Shown: positions 10,023-23,880, numbered from the stretch's first letter. The stretch is DNA of 64,000 nucleotides from an uncultured delta proteobacterium (GCA_963727445.1 CAVSGI010000010.1:1056001-1120000), one strand, 5' to 3'. Numbers and translations are program-made. Notes: generated from the letters alone by a model not told the origin.

Positions 10023-11193
10023 TTAGTCCACCGCGCGGACGACGCCCGCACCGATGGTGCGCCCGCCCTCACGGATGGCGAAGCGCATGCCCGCCTCGAG
10101 GGCGACGCCGCGGTCGAGAGCAAAACGGACGGTGGCCCGATCACCGGGCTCGGCCCGTCCCGCCTCGAAGTCGAGCTTCGCCGTGACCCGGGTAGCGCCG
10201 AAGTAGAGCTGCGGCGCGTAACCCGAGGTCGCGGCGCGCTTGCGCCCGCCTTCGGCCGCGGTGAGGAGAAAGATCTCCGCCGCGCCGCGCGCGTGCGCAC
10301 CGACCGAGCCGGGCGCGACCACGACCTGGCCGCGCAAGACCTCCCCGCGGCCGACGCCGCGAAGAAGCAGGCCGACGTTCTGGCCGGCCACCGCCTCGGC
10401 GACGTCGCGGTGAAACGACTGGATGCCGCTCACCACCGCCTCGAGGACGCCCTCACGACGGCCGACCACCTCGACCTTCCCCTCGCGAGCGAGGACGCCG
10501 CGGCCGACCCGGCCCGTCACGACCGTGCCGCGACCGGGGATGGTGCAGACGGCCTCGATGGGCATCAGGAAGGGCGCCTCCAGAATCCCGCGCGGGGATC
10601 GGGAGGTGCGCGTCCATCGCCTCGAGAAGCGCACGGATGCACGCCGTCGCCTCGTCGTCGAACTGGCCGAGGGCGCACGCCTCGAGGGCCCGAAGCGCGG
10701 AGCCGCGCACGAAGCGCGCCTCGTAGCCGTGGGCCGCGAGGAGCTCACGCACCTCGAGCTCGACGAGCTCGAGAAGCTCCGGGTCGGCGACGTCCACCTT
10801 GTTGATGAAGCAGACGAGGTGATCGACACCCAGCTGGCGGGCGAGCAGCACGTGCTCGCGGGTCTGGGCCTCGACGCCCTGACTGCCGTCGACGAGGAGG
10901 ATGCCGCCGTCCATCTGGCTGGCGCCGGTGATCATGTTCTTCACGAAGTCGGCGTGACCGGGACAGTCGACGTGGGCGTAGATCCGCCCCGCCGTCTCGT
11001 AGCGGACGTGGCTCGAGACGATGGTGATGCCGCGGCGCTTCTCCTCGGGGGCACGGTCGATCTCGGAAAAGGCCCAAGCCGTGCCACCGTGAAGATGCGA
11101 GGCCACCGCCGAGAGGGCGGCGGTGAGGGTGGTCTTGCCGTGGTCGACGTGGCCGATGGTGCCGACGCTGACGTGCTGCTTCGTGATGTTCAT
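10023..11193 (-). pseudogene. tuf: Divergent elongation factor Tu paralogue (EF-Tu3-like) with a +1 frameshift at 10584-10585 (may be intact in vivo)
   Basis: [33 protein letters not shown] and GSAL in one frame; [33 protein letters not shown] in the other. Removing one base from CGG GAT T CTG gives a 389-aa ORF. Confidence 0.9.
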
Positions 11194-11296
11194 TTCGCTA
11201 TCGATCTCCACTTCTCCTTCCGCGGCCGCGGGATTGCGGCGCGCGGGGACAGCCCGGGACGGACCTCTCCGGCAGAGGTTGGAGACGGACGAACGT

Positions 11297-11326
11297 GGCC
11301 CCCTGCCGGCGATGCCGGAGGGGGCC
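11297..11326 (-). terminator. Putative attenuator hairpin in the tuf 5' leader
   Basis: GGCCCCCT-g-CCGGC-gat-GCCGG-AGGGGGCC (+ strand), between the leader ORF stop and the tuf start. Confidence 0.55.
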
Positions 11327-11350
11327 TTCATCTTCAGGACGCTGAACGAC

Positions 11351-16878: not shown

Positions 16879-18324
16879 CTACATCGACTTCGTGTAGGAG
16901 AACTGGTCCAGCATCGAGCCGTCGAGACGATAGGCGGTGTACGTGATCGACAGCCCGTCGACGTCGACGACGGCGTAGTTGTTGGTGCTCTCGTTGACCA
17001 CGGTGTGCTCGCAGGTCTCGCTCCCGTAGAGCGGTGCACCAGCGCCGCCGCTGACGAAGTACACGGTCCCGCTCCCGTCGACCGGCTCACCGCTCGCGCC
17101 CTGGGCGCCGTACACGGGGTCGGTGCCTGACGAAAAGCCGCGGATGGGCTTGGAGCGCTCGTAGATGTGGTCGTGGCCGTTGAACACGAAGTCGACCTCG
17201 AGCTCGTCGTAGACGGGCTGCCAGACCTCCCGGAGATCGAGCTGGGAGCCGTGGCTGGTGGAGCAGCTGTAGAGGGCGCGGTGATGCATCACGAAGATCC
17301 ACGGAGTGGAGCTGCGGTCGACGCCCAACAGGTCGGTGCGGAGCCAGTCGCGCTGCGCGTCGAGGATGGACGAGTCGGGGACGGAATCGTTGAGCACCGC
17401 GAAGTGCGCGTTGCCGTAGTCGAAGGAGTACCACTCCTCACCGCGCGAAGGCTCCGACTCCATCGGCGACGGATCTTGAGGAAGCGCGAAGAGCAGCAGG
17501 TAGTTGATCGCCAGCGACTCGTGGTTGCCGTTGGCCACCATGAAGGGTGTCTCGGCGAGGACGTCCTGCACCGAGAAGGTGTCGATCTCCTGACCGAAGA
17601 AGTCGCTCCACGCGGGCTGATCGATCCCGATGCCCACCGCGTCCCCGGTGAAGACCTGGAAGTCGACGGCCTCGTCGCCGATCGCCTGTACGGTCTCGGC
17701 CCAGACGACCGAGTCGTTTCGGGCATCGCCGGCCACGGCGAATCGGAAGGGCTCGGCAGACCCCGGTGTCGGTGCGGTGGAGAGGGTGTAGACGTCGCTC
17801 CACGCGCCGGGGCCTCCGACTTTGTACGAATAGCTCGTCGACGGGTCGAGCCCACAGACGTGCGCCTCGTGGATTCGATAGTCGGTGGCCGTCACGTCCC
17901 GAAAGAGAACGTGGTGACCGAGGACATCCATCACCGTCGCCGAGCCCCCGTCCGCCGCCTCCACCTCGGCGGCGTCCGCGCCGAACAGGAGATGGGAGAC
18001 GGTGGTGTCGACGCCGGTCTGCCAGTTCACGGCGAAGCCATCGTCGCTCGGGCCCGCGAAGCTCGCGTGGATGAAGCGCGGGGACGGATCGCTCCCGACC
18101 TCGTCTCCCGACCGCTCAGCCTCCACCACCTCCGGCGTGCTGACCTCGTAGGTGCACCCGTCCGGCGTGTAGGTCAGGGTCGTCAGGGTCGACGACGTGC
18201 CGGTGTCGGTCGCCCGGCTGTCGGTCGCCAGCGCGTCCACGGCTGCGTCCACGGGAGCCGTGTCGTCGTCACCGCAAGCCATGACGAAGATCAGTGAAAA
18301 GACGAACGAACAAGCGCGCTGCAT
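16879..18324 (-). CDS. Purple acid phosphatase-family metallophosphoesterase lipoprotein
   Basis: Lipobox VMAC; FN3-like N-domain; GDAR, TGD, GNHE, HR.LY and GHDHIYER metal ligands. Confidence 0.88.
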   Translation of the reverse strand: MQRACSFVFSLIFVMACGDDDTAPVDAAVDALATDSRATDTGTSSTLTTLTYTPDGCTYEVSTPEVVEAERSGDEVGSDPSPRFIHASFAGPSDDGFAVNWQTGVDTTVSHLLFGADAAEVEAADGGSATVMDVLGHHVLFRDVTATDYRIHEAHVCGLDPSTSYSYKVGGPGAWSDVYTLSTAPTPGSAEPFRFAVAGDARNDSVVWAETVQAIGDEAVDFQVFTGDAVGIGIDQPAWSDFFGQEIDTFSVQDVLAETPFMVANGNHESLAINYLLLFALPQDPSPMESEPSRGEEWYSFDYGNAHFAVLNDSVPDSSILDAQRDWLRTDLLGVDRSSTPWIFVMHHRALYSCSTSHGSQLDLREVWQPVYDELEVDFVFNGHDHIYERSKPIRGFSSGTDPVYGAQGASGEPVDGSGTVYFVSGGAGAPLYGSETCEHTVVNESTNNYAVVDVDGLSITYTAYRLDGSMLDQFSYTKSM

Positions 18325-18380
18325 GACCCGAAGTCATGCCACGACCACCTCCGACGGCAACCCGGCCCCCTGACGACGAA

Positions 18381-18410
18381 GAGCCGGCGGGGCAAATGCC
18401 CGGCCGGCTC
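18381..18410 (-). terminator. Hairpin downstream of the Tat repeat peptide
   Basis: GAGCCGGCGGGGCA-aa-TGCCCGGCCGGCTC with one mismatch, 19 nt past the stop. Confidence 0.55.
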
Positions 18411-18429
18411 TCCTCATCTTCGTCTTGGC

Positions 18430-18798
18430 TCAGGTTCCGCGGCAGGGCCCGCGGCCCTGGCCGCCCGGATCGGCGTTGCCGCCCGAGTCGGAGTCGCTAT
18501 GCCCGCGACGACGGCATACGCCGTAGCCGCCCGGATCGCCCGTGCCATCGGGACCACCCTGGGTGTCGCGGTCGGTGTGGCCGCTACGGGGCTTGTCGGC
18601 CGGGTCGGCGTATTGGCCGGTGTCGTTGTCGGTCACCAGCTCCACCGAGTCGTCGGCCTTGGCGCGCGACTGTGGTCCGAGCACGACCGAGGTCGCTCCG
18701 AGGGCGAGCCCTCCCCCGACGACACCGAGCATCGAACGACGGCTCATGCCCGTCTCCGACACGATGTCTTCCTTCCGCAGGCTCTTCTTTTTGCTCAT
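18430..18798 (-). CDS. 122-aa Tat-signal peptide with three Asp-rich repeats (candidate modified-peptide precursor)
   Basis: GGAGGAG RBS; SRRSML twin-arginine motif, hydrophobic region and AKA cleavage site; repeats TDNDTG..ADP, TDRDTQ..GDP and SDSDSG..ADP. Confidence 0.8.
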   Translation of the reverse strand: MSKKKSLRKEDIVSETGMSRRSMLGVVGGGLALGATSVVLGPQSRAKADDSVELVTDNDTGQYADPADKPRSGHTDRDTQGGPDGTGDPGGYGVCRRRGHSDSDSGGNADPGGQGRGPCRGT

Positions 18799-18920
18799 TG
18801 CTCCTCCACTCGCGTCCGCTCCAAAGAGCGCTCGAACTATGAAAGCCGAAGCAGTGAATGAACACAAGCCTACTGCACACGGCCGTTGACAGACGTGCGG
18901 GGCTGGCGCTGCATTCATTC

Positions 18921-20114
18921 ATGCCCGCCACCTATTCGCTCAGTCGCCTCCTACATCCGATTACACCGGAGACATTCGAGGCCGAATACCGAGAGAAGAA
19001 GCCACTTCTGGTGAAGCGCGGTGAGCCGAATTACTACCGAGAGCTCCTGAACATGGACGTGGTCGACCGGGTGATCACCACCATGCACCCCAAGTACCCG
19101 GACGTGTTCCTGACGAACGCGGCGGCCGAGGAGATCAAGCCCGCGGAGTACACCTACCCCTCCGGCCTCATCGACGTCGCCCGCATCTACGGCCTCTTCT
19201 CCGAAGGGGGCACGATCGTGATGAGCAACCTGGAGCTGATGGTGGACTCCCTCGCGAACCTCTGCCGTTCGCTCGAGCGGGAGATGAGCGCGCGCTTTCA
19301 GGCGAACATCTATCTCACCCCGCACAACGCTCAGGGCTTCCGCCGGCACTACGACGCCCACGATGTCTTCGTGGTGCAGCTCGACGGCAGCAAGCTCTGG
19401 CGTGTCTACGACACCCCGGTGCAGCTCCCGCTTCCAGGCGAGCCCTTCGACCCCCGGGACTTCGACATCGACCCGAACGCCACGCCGACGATGGAGTTCG
19501 AGCTCGAGGCGGGCGACGTCTTCTATCTGCCGCGCGGGATCATGCACGACGCCATGAGCACCCAGAAGGCGAGCCTCCACATCACCGTCGGCACCTTCGG
19601 CCCGAGTTGGGTGCAGCTCCTCCTGGAAGCGGTGGCGAAGGTCGGTGTGAAGCACCCCGAGATGCGGCGCTCCTTGCCGATGGGCTTCGCGAAGCCCGGC
19701 TACGATTGCGCACAGGCGAAGAAGTTCTTCGATGAGCTCATGGCGACGGTCGCCGCAGAGGCGGACTTCGACGCGGCCCTGGACCACTTCGCCGACGACC
19801 TGGTGTCCAGTCGCCACTCGCTGCTCGTGGGGCAGCTCGACCAGGTGCTTCGCCTCCCCGAGCTCTCCCTCGACAGCGAGGTCGGCGCGCGGCCCAACCT
19901 CCTCTACCACCTTCGCACCGACGACGCGTTCGTCTACGTCTCCTGCTACGGCTCGAATCTCCGCATGCCGGTGCACGCCGCCGAGCCCCTCGCGTATGCC
20001 CTCACCACCGAGCGCTTCCGCGTCGGCGACCTCCCAGGCGACCTCGACGACGACGGCAAGCTGGTGTTGATCGAGCGCCTGATCCGCGATGGCTTGGTGC
20101 TGCAGCACGCCTGA
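18921..20114 (+). CDS. JmjC/Cupin_4 (RoxA/YcfD/NO66-like) Fe(II)/2-oxoglutarate oxygenase
   Basis: NIYLTP, HYDAHDVFVVQ..GSK.W and GDVFYLPRGIMHDA (HxD..H triad); SLHITVG; C-terminal winged-helix-like LIERLIRDGLV. TTGACA at 18886-18891. Confidence 0.88.
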   Translation: MPATYSLSRLLHPITPETFEAEYREKKPLLVKRGEPNYYRELLNMDVVDRVITTMHPKYPDVFLTNAAAEEIKPAEYTYPSGLIDVARIYGLFSEGGTIVMSNLELMVDSLANLCRSLEREMSARFQANIYLTPHNAQGFRRHYDAHDVFVVQLDGSKLWRVYDTPVQLPLPGEPFDPRDFDIDPNATPTMEFELEAGDVFYLPRGIMHDAMSTQKASLHITVGTFGPSWVQLLLEAVAKVGVKHPEMRRSLPMGFAKPGYDCAQAKKFFDELMATVAAEADFDAALDHFADDLVSSRHSLLVGQLDQVLRLPELSLDSEVGARPNLLYHLRTDDAFVYVSCYGSNLRMPVHAAEPLAYALTTERFRVGDLPGDLDDDGKLVLIERLIRDGLVLQHA

Positions 20115-20181: not shown

Positions 20182-23100
20182 ATGCCGCGCTACGAGCTCG
20201 TCGAAGGGAAGTCGTCCAAGTTCTGGGAAGTCGAGGTCGAGGGGAAGGATCTCCACCTCGCCTGGGGCCGCATCGGAACGAACGGCCAGGAGAAGACGAA
20301 GAGCTTCGCCAGCAGCGCGGCCGCCGAAGCCGAACGCGACAAGCTGATCCAGCAGAAGACGAAGAAGGGATACTCGCTGGTCTCGGGGACAGAGACGAAG
20401 ACGGCAGCCGAGACGGAAACGGAGACGGAGACGGCAGCGGAGACGGAGACGACGGAAACGGCGACGGAAACGGACACGGCGACGGGAACGGAAACGGCGA
20501 CGGAAACGGCCAGGGCAACGGAGACAAGCGCCGTCGCGGGGCCGGAAGAAGAGGGCATCACCTTCTCCCCCGCCTGGCGTCGCCTCGTCCATCCGAGGCG
20601 CGGCCACCCGAGCGCTTCCTTCCTCGGTGCGACGCCGAGCGCGGAGGAGAGTTGGAAGAAGATTCACGCGAGCTGGGTGGGGCGGATGAGCGAGACCTGG
20701 ACGGCGCCCGAGCCGGAGCGACTCACGAAGGCGTTCGCGTTCCTCGCCGCACAGGAGCCTCCCACGCCGGAAGACGCCGCGGTGCAGGGGGTGGTGGGGC
20801 GTCTGCTCGGATTCAAGCGGGCCTACAACGACAAGCCGATCACGGCGCCGCTCGTCGACTTCTGGATGGCCACCAAGGGCCCCGCTTTCGCGACGCACGC
20901 CGCGTTCCGCACTCTCGAGATGCGCTACGGAAGTGGCACCGAGCTCCGCTCTCGCGCCGCGACGCCAGCCTCCAATCACTGGATCGAGTCCGCCCCCACC
21001 GTGTTCCCGCGTCTCCGCGCGCGGCTCGCCTCGGTGGACGACGCGCAGTACGCCGAGGCGCGCGAGGTCGCGGCGGGCTATCGGGCGCTGGGCGACGACG
21101 CGCGTGCCGCCGCCGCTTTCGTCTTTCCCACCGAGAAGGAGTGGGTCGACGCCTCCGTCGCCGAGCTCACGGGGAGCGGGCTCGACTTCGAGCGCAAGCT
21201 CGTGGTCTCCAGCCTGACGCGGGCCGATCAGCTCGAGCCGCTCTTCATCGGGCTGCGGGCCTTCATGATCGTCGGCCGCTGGCGGGGGCCGAATCAGCTC
21301 CCTTCGCTCTGCGAGGGCCTGGGCGAAGAGCTCACCCCCTTCGTCCTGCGCTGGCTCGGTGAGGAGTATCTCGACGCCGACACCACCAAGGAGCTCTACG
21401 AAGCGCTCGCGATCCTCCCGGGACAGACGCCTCTCGACGCCCTCCTCGATCGGCTGAGCGACAAGTACGTCCTGCCCATCGCGATGGAAGCGGTGCTCAA
21501 TCGACCCCGCCGGGCGACGCGCATGCTGAGCGCGCGCATCGCCGCGCGAGGCAAGAACGTCGACGGCGCGAAGCGGCTCCTGACCACGGTGATCGCGAAG
21601 ATGCCCGAGGTCGTCGACGCCGTACGCGGCGAGCTCCCGGAAGGACAACAGGCGGCCATCGCCGAGATCGAAGCCTCGCGCGTGCAGAAGCCGCCCGCCG
21701 ACGTCGACTCACTGCCCGAGATCCTCGTCGCGCCGCCGTGGAGCAAGAAGACGAAGCGACCGAAGCTTCCGGTGATCAAGGACGTCACCCCGCTTCGAGT
21801 TCCGTCGAAGATGAGCTGGGCGCCGGGCGAAAAGGAAAAGTGGCAGGCCTCGCATCGGGCCCCGGGTTACGCGACCAACGCCAGCGCTCAGGATTGGGAG
21901 ACCCATCTCTCGAAGCTCCGCGCCGGCACCCTGCCCATGTACTACCAGGAGATGCTCCTGGTCGGCGCCCCCGACGCGGTGGCGGCCGAAGCGGTGACGC
22001 ACTGGGTCCCCAAGGACCCCTGGTACATCGGCAACTTCTTCCGCGCGGCCATCGCGCGTCACGAGCTCGCGCTCTACTCCTCGGTCGCCTACTTCGTCCG
22101 GGAGCACTTGAAGGACGGCCTCGCCTACATCGGCCCGTTCGACATCCCGGAGCTCGCGCCTTACGTCGCCGACGCTTTCATCCGCCTCAAGTCCGCGCGC
22201 AACGACGCCATGACCTGGATGCTGCGCCATCCAGAGGCGACCGCGGTCGGTGTGATCCCCGAGGCGGTGGGCAGGGCCGGCAAGAAGCGCCGGGCAGGCG
22301 AGGCCGCGCTCCGCTTTCTGAAGTCCGAAGGGCACGAGGGGACGGTGCTGAAGATCGCCGCGGACTACGGCGACGAGGTGCGTGGGGCCGTGGAGCAGAT
22401 CCTCGCCATCGACCCCAAGGACGTCCTGCCCAAGAAGCTCCCGACGATGCCGTCGTTCTGGGAGCCGAGCGCCCTGCCCGCGCCGCTCCTCGCGGACCGC
22501 GAGCGCTCGCTCCCACCGTCGGCGATCGAGCACGTCGGGATCATGCTCGCCATGTCGAAGCCGGGCGAGGAGTACCCGGGGCTCGACGACGTGCTCGCGG
22601 TCTGCGATCGCGAATCGCTCGCGCGCTTCGCCTGGGCGGTCTTCGAAGCGTGGCAGGCCGCGGGCCATCCCGCGAAGGAAGGCTGGGCCTTCACCGCGCT
22701 CGCGATCTTCGGAGACGACGAGGTCGCGCGGCGCCTCACACCGCTGATTCGCCGGTGGCCCGGGGACGGCGGCCATGCGCGCGCGGTGACCGGTCTCGAC
22801 GTGCTGACCGCGATCGGCAGCGACGTCGCCCTGATGCACCTGCACGGCATCGCGCAGAAGGTGAAGTTCAAGGGCCTTCAGAAGAACGCGAAGGAGAAGA
22901 TCGCGATCATCGCCCAGGAGCGCAACCTGACGCCGGAGGAGCTCGCGGATCGCCTGGTGCCCGACCTCGGCCTCGAGGACGACGGATCGATGGTCCTCGA
23001 CTACGGCCCGCGCCAGTTCACGGTCGGTTTCGACGAGCACCTCAAGCCCTTCGTCCTCGCCGACGGCAAACCGCGCAAGAGCCTGCCCAAGCCTGGTGCC

Positions 23101-23880
23101 AAGGATGACCCGGAGAAGGCCCCCGCCGCCTACAAACGGTTCAGCGCGCTGAAGAAGGACGCGAAGACGGCGGCGAAGTCACAGATACTTCGTCTCGAGC
23201 TGGCCATGGTCGGCCAGCGGCGCTGGAGCGGCGCACAGCTTCGTCGCTTCTTCCTCGAGCACCCTCTGATGATCCACCTGAGCCGGCGCCTCTTGTGGGC
23301 GCGCTACGACGAGGCGGGCGCCGTGACCGAGACCTTCCGCGTCGCGGAGGACGGCTCCCTCGCCAGCGCCGAGGACGAGGAGATCAGCCTCGCCGACGAC
23401 GCACGGGTCGGCATCGTTCACTCCCTCGATCTCGGGGAGAGCGACGCCGGGAAATGGGGCGAGGTCTTCGGCGACTACGAGATCCTGCAGCCCTTCACCC
23501 AGCTCGGTCGCGAGACCTACGCCATCGAGGAGAGCGAGAAGAAGGAGCTCGCGCTCGCGCGCTTCCGCGGAAAGAAGGTCCCCACCCGCGCGGTGATCGG
23601 CCTCGAAGCGAGAGGTTGGCGGCGCGGGCCTCCGATGGACGGCGGCATCGTGGGCTGGATGCAGAAGCAGCTCCCGAACGGGGCCTGCGCCTGCTTGAAC
23701 CTCGACCCCGGCCTCTTCACCGGCTACCTCGACGAGGAGCCCGAGCAGACCCTCGACGACCTGACCGTCACGCGCTCCGCCCAGTCCTGGGACTCGCGCG
23801 GACAGACGCCGATGGGTGAGCTGTCGCCGGTGATCTTCTCCGAGCTTGTGCGGGACGTCACCCAGCTCAGCGAAGCTTGA
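20182..23880 (+). CDS. WGR-domain + DUF4132 protein (MolR/YehF-like)
   Basis: SSKFWEV..WGRIGTNGQ..KTKKGY WGR domain; C-terminal ELADRLVPDLGL, RLELAMVGQRRW and DYEILQPFTQLGR; GAGGAG RBS. Confidence 0.88.
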   Translation: MPRYELVEGKSSKFWEVEVEGKDLHLAWGRIGTNGQEKTKSFASSAAAEAERDKLIQQKTKKGYSLVSGTETKTAAETETETETAAETETTETATETDTATGTETATETARATETSAVAGPEEEGITFSPAWRRLVHPRRGHPSASFLGATPSAEESWKKIHASWVGRMSETWTAPEPERLTKAFAFLAAQEPPTPEDAAVQGVVGRLLGFKRAYNDKPITAPLVDFWMATKGPAFATHAAFRTLEMRYGSGTELRSRAATPASNHWIESAPTVFPRLRARLASVDDAQYAEAREVAAGYRALGDDARAAAAFVFPTEKEWVDASVAELTGSGLDFERKLVVSSLTRADQLEPLFIGLRAFMIVGRWRGPNQLPSLCEGLGEELTPFVLRWLGEEYLDADTTKELYEALAILPGQTPLDALLDRLSDKYVLPIAMEAVLNRPRRATRMLSARIAARGKNVDGAKRLLTTVIAKMPEVVDAVRGELPEGQQAAIAEIEASRVQKPPADVDSLPEILVAPPWSKKTKRPKLPVIKDVTPLRVPSKMSWAPGEKEKWQASHRAPGYATNASAQDWETHLSKLRAGTLPMYYQEMLLVGAPDAVAAEAVTHWVPKDPWYIGNFFRAAIARHELALYSSVAYFVREHLKDGLAYIGPFDIPELAPYVADAFIRLKSARNDAMTWMLRHPEATAVGVIPEAVGRAGKKRRAGEAALRFLKSEGHEGTVLKIAADYGDEVRGAVEQILAIDPKDVLPKKLPTMPSFWEPSALPAPLLADRERSLPPSAIEHVGIMLAMSKPGEEYPGLDDVLAVCDRESLARFAWAVFEAWQAAGHPAKEGWAFTALAIFGDDEVARRLTPLIRRWPGDGGHARAVTGLDVLTAIGSDVALMHLHGIAQKVKFKGLQKNAKEKIAIIAQERNLTPEELADRLVPDLGLEDDGSMVLDYGPRQFTVGFDEHLKPFVLADGKPRKSLPKPGAKDDPEKAPAAYKRFSALKKDAKTAAKSQILRLELAMVGQRRWSGAQLRRFFLEHPLMIHLSRRLLWARYDEAGAVTETFRVAEDGSLASAEDEEISLADDARVGIVHSLDLGESDAGKWGEVFGDYEILQPFTQLGRETYAIEESEKKELALARFRGKKVPTRAVIGLEARGWRRGPPMDGGIVGWMQKQLPNGACACLNLDPGLFTGYLDEEPEQTLDDLTVTRSAQSWDSRGQTPMGELSPVIFSELVRDVTQLSEA
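20389..20526 (+). repeat. Degenerate ACGG(A/C)(A/G) hexamer array encoding a Thr/Glu/Ala linker
   Basis: TETKTAAETETETETAAETETTETATETDTATGTETATETARATET between the WGR domain and the rest of the protein. Confidence 0.8.

Follow-up and report, generated by a model that had tools for sequence, protein, structure and literature searches.

Why should a small aspartate-rich peptide with a predicted export signal be encoded next to an oxygenase of the ribosomal oxygenase (ROX) type? The question arises at positions 18,381 to 20,114 of a 64,000-nucleotide stretch of DNA from an uncultured delta proteobacterium (GCA_963727445.1 CAVSGI010000010.1:1056001-1120000), in the following called the window. 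A preliminary description of this DNA had proposed that the peptide is the substrate of the divergently encoded JmjC oxygenase and leaves the cell via twin-arginine translocation (Tat) as a multivalent metal-binding peptide. We found that the two genes are a conserved two-gene module resembling those for peptides that are ribosomally synthesized and then modified post-translationally (RiPPs), as seen in their linkage, leader and core architecture, fold, catalytic residues and the co-variation of leader and enzyme helix. The sequence hallmarks of a RiPP are present: a gene-encoded precursor, a conserved leader before a variable core, and a co-occurring modifying enzyme. The principal features are listed here, with RRE standing for RiPP recognition element.

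18430..18798, minus strand: precursor peptide gene P0001, 122 amino acids (aa), from its open reading frame (ORF), homologs and codon-position changes
18757..18783, minus strand: candidate recognition sequence, residues 6-14, of the type [TS]-L-x-[DE]-x-[DEQ]-I-x-[TS], in which L7 and I12 form L-x4-I
18655..18744, minus strand: predicted Tat signal, residues 19-48, with S-R-R-S-M-L, a hydrophobic region and an A-K-A cleavage site, from the sequence
18433..18654, minus strand: core, 74 aa, with three [TS]-D-x-D-[ST]..D-P repeats, 13 Asp, Cys95 and Cys119, from repeat alignment
18921..20114, plus strand: NO66-like JmjC Fe(II)/2-oxoglutarate oxygenase P0002, 397 aa, with JmjC core, dimerization helices and winged helix
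19866..20111, plus strand: C-terminal winged-helix domain, residues 316-397, with an RRE-like strand-strand-strand-helix order, from the structure model
20037..20093, plus strand: the winged-helix domain's last helix, residues 373-391, conserved in step with the L-x4-I leader

The peptide ORF codes for protein, because 17 of the 76 candidates scored are homologs and third codon positions take most of the changes against two relatives (49 of 87 and 54 of 101). It has the extended n-region, SRRSML motif and AKA site first described for it, and the 74-aa mature part after AKA contains 13 Asp, 2 Cys and three [TS]-D-x-D repeats, as claimed. The strong ribosome-binding site (RBS) is also there (GGAGGAG, 18801-18807, minus strand, close to the ATG). 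No Pfam or NCBIfam family scored above cut-off for the peptide, and the ESM Atlas gave it no named family (the top matches are unnamed clusters, of low recognition value).

Linkage of the peptide and the oxygenase across genomes

The pairing of peptide and enzyme is not due to chance. According to record titles, pairs recur in Myxococcota (Polyangiales), Alphaproteobacteria and Acidobacteriota. Among 301 genomes of the host phylum, the present one included, the enzyme occurs in five and the peptide in four, adjoining the enzyme in all four. In the order to which genome G001 belongs (251 genomes), the enzyme was found in 14, and all 11 genomes with the peptide lie within these 14; in two of the remaining three an adjacent peptide had escaped the search, and the third carries a tandem enzyme type that is distant. 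The genomes in these counts are kin and not independent, and no p-value is given.

Searches starting from the enzyme gave 29 genome loci, with the peptide beside all nine near-full-length enzymes of at least 41% identity and no convincing peptide-model match at the 19 loci of at most 37% or at a broken copy (L027). Among the best 80 metagenome enzyme loci, 61 have the peptide, five have a partial peptide at a contig edge and nine have less than 300 nt of sequence upstream. At loci of the Acidobacteriota type (at least 46% identity to the L164 enzyme), a leader peptide was found in 43 of 45 cases, both misses lying at contig ends.

Starting from the peptide, we scanned 20 of the 64 parts of the genome collection with a degenerate DNA motif and obtained at least 123 stretches, 80 of them with flanks. 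The enzyme lies in the flank at 43 of these 80 loci (40 of 77 without duplicates). Three of the 37 enzyme-free flanks came from genomes already covered, leaving 34 genomes to be searched, and 33 of these hold the enzyme elsewhere. The initial proposal had been made to depend on homologous peptides being linked to JmjC genes in other genomes, and this they are, co-occurrence being nearly complete at genome level. No third gene (transporter, receptor or protease) recurs across clades among 4831 neighboring frames at 224 loci, where only lineage-specific housekeeping neighbors were seen.

Leader, core and winged-helix domain

The extended n-region noted in the preliminary description proves to be the most informative part of the peptide, as it carries the candidate enzyme-recognition sequence. 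The 95 long leaders have the motif [TS]-L-x-D-x-[QDE]-I-x-[TS]; they were selected by its L, D and I, and three properties that played no part in the selection recur as well, namely T/S at position −1 (91/95), T/S at +7 (91/95) and a distance of 13 residues from the motif L to the twin arginines (RR; 78/95). Of 35 Tat-like N-termini in the source genome, just two, this peptide's included, show a motif like it. The same L-x4-I heads Asp-rich peptides without twin arginines, beside more distant enzymes, at nine loci chosen by eye (L291:4209-4394, L292, L294, L295 and L299 in Streptomyces; L293:2080-2502 and L304:2144-2578 in Chloroflexota; L006:4659-4979; L009:4614-4979). The motif therefore belongs to the partnership with the enzyme and not to the export signal.

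The Tat motif of this peptide has Met in place of the usual Phe (SRRSML). RRxFL occurs in 68 of the 70 relatives of the Acidobacteriota type and in 67 of the 110 with short leaders, and a Tat-signal hidden Markov model matched weakly in 15 and 3 of 28 peptides. The source genome (86% complete) encodes one such peptide, one such enzyme and TatC. The A-x-A site fits signal peptidase I, and no dedicated protease is a conserved neighbor in the 4831 frames. From these sequences, Tat export of the peptide is predicted with good confidence. A lipobox Cys after the hydrophobic region is absent from this copy; 42 of 213 relatives have a lipobox-like Cys (L004, L058, L066, L075 and L104 among them), and these would be membrane-anchored lipopeptides.

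Two core types stand behind one leader, with either Gly/Arg repeats or Lys-rich xDPD repeats (Acidobacteriota-type). D57, D59, D65, D102, D104 and D110 are invariant in 28 aligned peptides. D-x-D is present in 251 of 253 cores, in 176/176 of the Gly/Arg type, a count that is partly circular as these were found with D-x-D models, and in 75/77 of the xDPD type, which were found via the leader. D-P follows with 231 cores (162 Gly/Arg, 69 xDPD) and is missing from 22, Rhodobacteraceae-type ones among them. Every core scored for composition contains Pro. His occurs in 84 of the 253 (63 Gly/Arg, 21 xDPD) and Arg in 175 of 176 Gly/Arg and 55 of 77 xDPD cores; Arg, Asn, His and Lys are each absent from many cores of one type.

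The winged-helix domain (82 residues) was modeled with a predicted local distance difference test (pLDDT) value of 95.9, strands preceding helices. RREs are defined as three strands followed by three helices (PMC12710340), and the domain has this order, with a middle helix of three residues and two extra short strands by DSSP. A fold search with the domain returned MINA53/NO66 first and then many RREs, mixed with some unrelated winged helices. The RRE matches TigE, PbtF, MccB, ThcOx, TbiB1 and PqqD reached Z 6.2-7.6, among them PbtF (Z 7.5, root-mean-square deviation (rmsd) 3.1, 77 aligned), TbiB1 (Z 6.8, rmsd 2.8, 72 aligned) and PqqD (Z 6.2, rmsd 2.7, 76 aligned), with Foldseek TM values of 0.59-0.64 for PbtF, TbiB1 and TigE. 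Pfam assigns no family to this enzyme's C-terminal domain, with two stray weak matches among 54 members. In the available text of PMC12710340, RREs are described to bind leaders between the third strand and the third helix, and JmjC proteins with RRE-like folds to have bacterial homologs in RiPP-like contexts; the idea of a JmjC-RRE fusion is thus not new.

The last helix is the best-conserved segment of the long-leader enzymes, with a pairwise identity of 0.72-0.76 in these clades versus 0.59-0.68 for the catalytic core. In the short-leader clade the helix is at 0.33, versus 0.63 for the core. A last-helix profile reached at least 15 bits in 118 of 122 long-leader enzymes (a circular figure, the profile having been built from them; the four misses are cut or broken enzymes), in 9/9 enzymes beside non-Tat L-x4-I peptides and in 0/28 short-leader enzymes. 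By core score, the short-leader enzymes rank above the non-Tat ones (medians 161 vs 137 bits). The labels of L049, L071 and L192 in this comparison were corrected by hand. Because the leader is kept while the core is swapped, and the enzyme helix co-varies with the leader, we favor a leader-guided reading, and the leader likely binds the winged helix.

Catalytic residues, target and rival explanations

The oxygenase matches JmjC_2 in Pfam (PF08007, E 1.9e-28). The HxD..H triad, described beforehand as intact, is present as H143-x-D145..H209, together with the 2-oxoglutarate lysine K158, and all four residues are conserved to 96-100% in the linked clades. NO66 is the best match both by sequence (E 3e-27) and by fold (Z 31.8, rmsd 4.4, 386 aligned; model pLDDT 90.5). 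Like NO66/RIOX1, MINA53/RIOX2 and YcfD/RoxA (PF08007), the enzyme combines a JmjC core, dimerization helices, a winged helix and the triad. It differs from these ROX enzymes in sequence (~25% identity to NO66, 17% to RoxA), in the loss of a His-binding Ser, in its patchy distribution and in its small-peptide partner. Identity to E. coli RoxA is 17% over 352 aligned columns (23% over 223 by BLASTP), and a tree of 145 sequences rooted on the single RoxA places the oxygenase in a separate clade. On these two grounds, orthology with the YcfD/RoxA uL16 arginine hydroxylase was rejected, and the grouping with ribosomal uL16 hydroxylases that had been named as speaking against the proposal was not found.

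In NO66, Tyr328 and Ser421 are reported to bind the substrate His (PMC9994133). Using a numbering offset of 181, which we verified with the L299C/C300S mutant given in a structure entry title, we found Tyr328 kept as Y131 and Ser421 replaced by G224, which is invariant in the four peptide-linked clades, so that half of the His-binding pair is lost. Gln127 is likewise invariant in these four clades and stands at 27% in the outgroup. A His target of the NO66/MINA53 type was rejected on the loss of Ser421 and the presence of His in 84/253 cores, and Arg as a general target on its absence from 22/77 xDPD cores. Of the three targets first suggested, Asp, His or Arg, only Asp is favored, with D-x-D in 251/253 cores. 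The modification is somewhat more probably Asp beta-hydroxylation than anything else.

The mechanism that we propose would begin with capture of the precursor, via L7-x4-I12, by the RRE-like winged-helix domain of the NO66-like oxygenase, which would then hydroxylate Asp beta-carbons in the D-x-D repeats of the core. The modified peptide would be released for Tat export, with signal cleavage at A-K-A, after which Cys95 and Cys119 could pair, and the product would work beyond the cytoplasm, where its most plausible role would be to bind hard metal ions multivalently. The Tat route is suited to proteins that mature before leaving the cytoplasm, and in siderophores beta-hydroxy-Asp serves as a ligand of Fe3+. 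That the peptide is the substrate of the enzyme is very likely. Substrate role, Asp hydroxylation and export taken jointly, metal function excluded, have about an even chance in our estimate. Metal binding as the job of the peptide is possible though somewhat doubtful, and is the weakest step, because gene neighborhood and promoter motifs give it no support and many cores are net positive.

Several observations weigh against this proposal. Five of the 80 metagenome enzymes (L184, L207, L221, L227 and L229) have no peptide despite at least 400 nt of upstream sequence. The Z values to RREs are middling (5-7.6), and NO66, MINA53 and YcfD share the winged-helix fold yet act on ribosomal proteins. 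The helix profile derives from long-leader enzymes, and few independent events (a clade of 27 members and L310) underlie the contrast between leader and helix. The short-leader alphaproteobacterial clade is equally tightly linked with neither L-x4-I nor a conserved helix, so the partnership can do without the motif. As to metals, no Fur, ICE, sigma-54, EcfG, CtrA or FnrL motif is enriched in the upstream promoter regions, and neither receptors nor transporters are conserved neighbors in the 4831 frames at 224 loci. A net positive charge, a poor fit for a cation chelator, was found in a fraction of 0.74 of the 77 xDPD-type cores, and Asp-rich D-x-D-x-G loops can bind Ca2+ unmodified.

The same pair with export could also serve an oxidation of another residue (Pro, Ser/Thr, Asn or Arg) or another reaction (desaturation, backbone cleavage). 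Pro is found in every core scored and D-P in 231/253, and ornithine rather than Asp is the residue hydroxylated by the PF08007/JmjC RiPP enzymes PhaI and BipG; D-P is, however, missing from 22 cores, D-x-D is nearly universal, and Arg, Asn, His and Lys are each lacking in many cores of one type. We regard this alternative as unlikely. Quite improbable is that the peptide passes through Tat unmodified, as a Ca2+/metal-binding or surface repeat protein, and that the co-regulated oxygenase acts on another target. The resemblance of D-x-D-x-G to Ca2+-binding loops would fit it, as would the 37/80 peptide-first loci where the enzyme is not within 4 kb and genomes with many unlinked peptide genes and one enzyme (G001), but against it speak the almost complete co-occurrence by genome, the co-variation of leader and enzyme helix, and the leader being retained on peptides without an export signal beside related enzymes.

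Improbable to a similar degree is an enzyme acting as a signal-peptide chaperone or as an oxygen- or iron-dependent gate on Tat export, or a peptide acting as a decoy that regulates the enzyme. The motif lies 13 residues ahead of RR in 78/95 leaders, near enough to mask RR, and redox enzyme maturation proteins (REMPs), described as Tat chaperones that bind the signal peptides of single pre-proteins (PMC3316669, PMC3712460), offer a precedent. Such a role is at odds with the 96-100% conservation of triad and 2-oxoglutarate lysine in the linked clades and with leaders on peptides without a Tat signal, and it leaves the repeated Asp motifs of the core unexplained. A ribosomal oxygenase of the uL16 type with the peptide as a chance neighbor would agree with the full ROX architecture and with this enzyme being the sole ROX-like match in its 86%-complete genome. 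Its patchy occurrence (5/301 genomes of the phylum, 14/251 of a different order), in nearly every case alongside the peptide, makes this explanation highly improbable, as do its 17% identity with RoxA and its own clade in the RoxA-rooted tree.

Each step of the leader-guided hydroxylation mechanism has a precedent in MppG, SmaO, PhaI/BipG or the bufferins. MppG, from the MppG/MppE system of Moorena producens, is reported as an Fe/alpha-ketoglutarate hydroxylase that ends in an RRE and depends on the leader motif L(X)4L for dihydroxylation (bioRxiv 10.64898/2026.10.04.756588). It resembles what we propose for the present enzyme in chemistry, RRE-type C-terminus and leader-motif-dependent repeated beta-hydroxylation, and differs as a lanthipeptide-cluster tailoring enzyme that acts on Trp, with a Nif11 leader and without a Tat signal. 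SmaO is described to hydroxylate both Asp of D-G-D-G and to need Gly after Asp (PMC12186529). Together with CinX/DurX, YhhC and CanE, it shares with the proposed reaction the Fe/2-oxoglutarate Asp beta-hydroxylation in a ribosomal peptide; unlike the present enzyme, these are presented as having a secondary part in clusters that contain a cyclase defining the class and an exporter of their own, and SmaO is not called JmjC or cupin in the text of that paper that was searched (PMC12186529). PhaI (phaeornamide, PMC8784127) and BipG (biphenomycin, PMC12707348) are PF08007/JmjC enzymes reported to hydroxylate a RiPP precursor residue, but they perform ornithine gamma-hydroxylation as one of several maturases, without Tat export or repeats in the accounts available. 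Bufferins are described as RiPP precursors of large size that rely on Sec and signal peptidase, reportedly as the first to use Sec, and bind metals in the periplasm (bioRxiv 10.1101/2024.03.18.585515). They differ by Sec in place of Tat, MNIO chemistry on Cys, a signal peptide dispensable for modification, and copper. Membership among the bufferins was rejected, as the enzyme is JmjC and not MNIO, the signal is of the twin-arginine type and Cys occurs in 9% of xDPD cores.

The literature searched, outside of which lay most subscription journals and bioRxiv supplements, contains no description of this peptide-enzyme pairing and no paper combining a RiPP precursor peptide, a Tat signal and post-translational modification. 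Only tentatively do we suggest that the pair represents a RiPP class both new and widespread, with a ROX-type JmjC enzyme as the sole maturase; its winged helix would serve as an RRE reading L-x4-I ahead of the Tat signal, and many beta-hydroxy-Asp formed on D-x-D would yield an exported hydroxy-aspartate metallophore. If true, this would give a function to the ROX winged-helix domain, whose role is called unclear in PMC6182338, and would hint at leader-guided peptide hydroxylation as the original activity of NO66-like enzymes. It would also add a Tat-exported branch to RiPP biology in marine and soil bacteria of three phyla, and offer a minimal system of two genes in which Asp is hydroxylated at multiple sites and the core can be exchanged. 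The role of the domain becomes testable, with the short-leader clade as a natural control and cultured hosts in Parasphingopyxis lamellibrachiae DSM 26725 and Aurantiacibacter zhengii V18.

Locus surroundings and variants of the pair

Two further features belong to the non-coding parts of the locus.

18799..18920, no strand: divergent intergenic region, 122 bp, with the peptide RBS
~18372..18418, minus strand: G+C-rich hairpin 3' of the peptide gene, z -3.25 against 200 shuffles

The shared divergent region reported for the two genes exists at this locus and is not their general layout. Among 114 locus pairs, duplicates included, 83 are co-directional with the peptide upstream and 22 are divergent, and a divergent promoter as a defining feature was rejected on that count. 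No sigma-70-like site passed the promoter scan in the 122 bp. The hairpin ascribed to the peptide gene folds stably, 1/200 shuffles being equally stable, but lacks a U tail in this copy and does not figure among the hits of the terminator scan; the matching hairpin in the relative L155 ends in a T run. It is likely a terminator or an mRNA-stabilizing stem.

The numbers of peptide genes per enzyme vary. One clade enzyme can be accompanied by many peptide genes, scattered or in tandem (G001, on eight contigs; G488:C1, in three places), and tandem peptide arrays were seen at L062/L063 and L091/L092 (five genes), an arrangement suggesting that one enzyme serves a library of precursors. The broken partial enzyme copy at L027:4902-5387 has no peptide alongside, and the same genome holds an intact pair (L008). 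L207, L221 and L227 form an enzyme sub-clade with an intact last helix and no peptide found nearby; just 3' of the L221 enzyme lies a frame that we take, from its motif, to be radical-SAM-like.

More distant relatives also occur in peptide contexts. The short non-Tat L-x4-I peptides, whose neighboring enzymes have 33-37% identity to the query enzymes, are candidate members of a wider JmjC-peptide family. At L016:2334-3111 and L309:1660-2443, two tandem Nif11/NHLP-like precursors with a double-glycine leader end stand beside a distant PF08007-type enzyme, a setting that resembles PhaI/MppG and in which the last-helix profile scores low (7 and 11 bits). At L010, L017, L298 and G552:C2:482621-484931, more distant NO66-like genes stand in tandem, two or three together, and no peptide was identified there.

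Directly 3' of the peptide gene, the window encodes a metallophosphoesterase of the purple-acid-phosphatase type with a lipoprotein-like N-terminus (16879-18324, minus strand; PF16656, PF00149). On the other side, 68 bp past the oxygenase, starts a gene for a WGR and DUF4132 protein with a Glu/Thr low-complexity linker (20182-23880, plus strand). Neither is among the 45 listed clusters of neighbor genes. Farther away, an elongation-factor-Tu-like gene, recognized by eye, looks split, by a frameshift or a sequencing error, into the overlapping frames 10453-11331 and 10023-10829 (10023-11331, minus strand).

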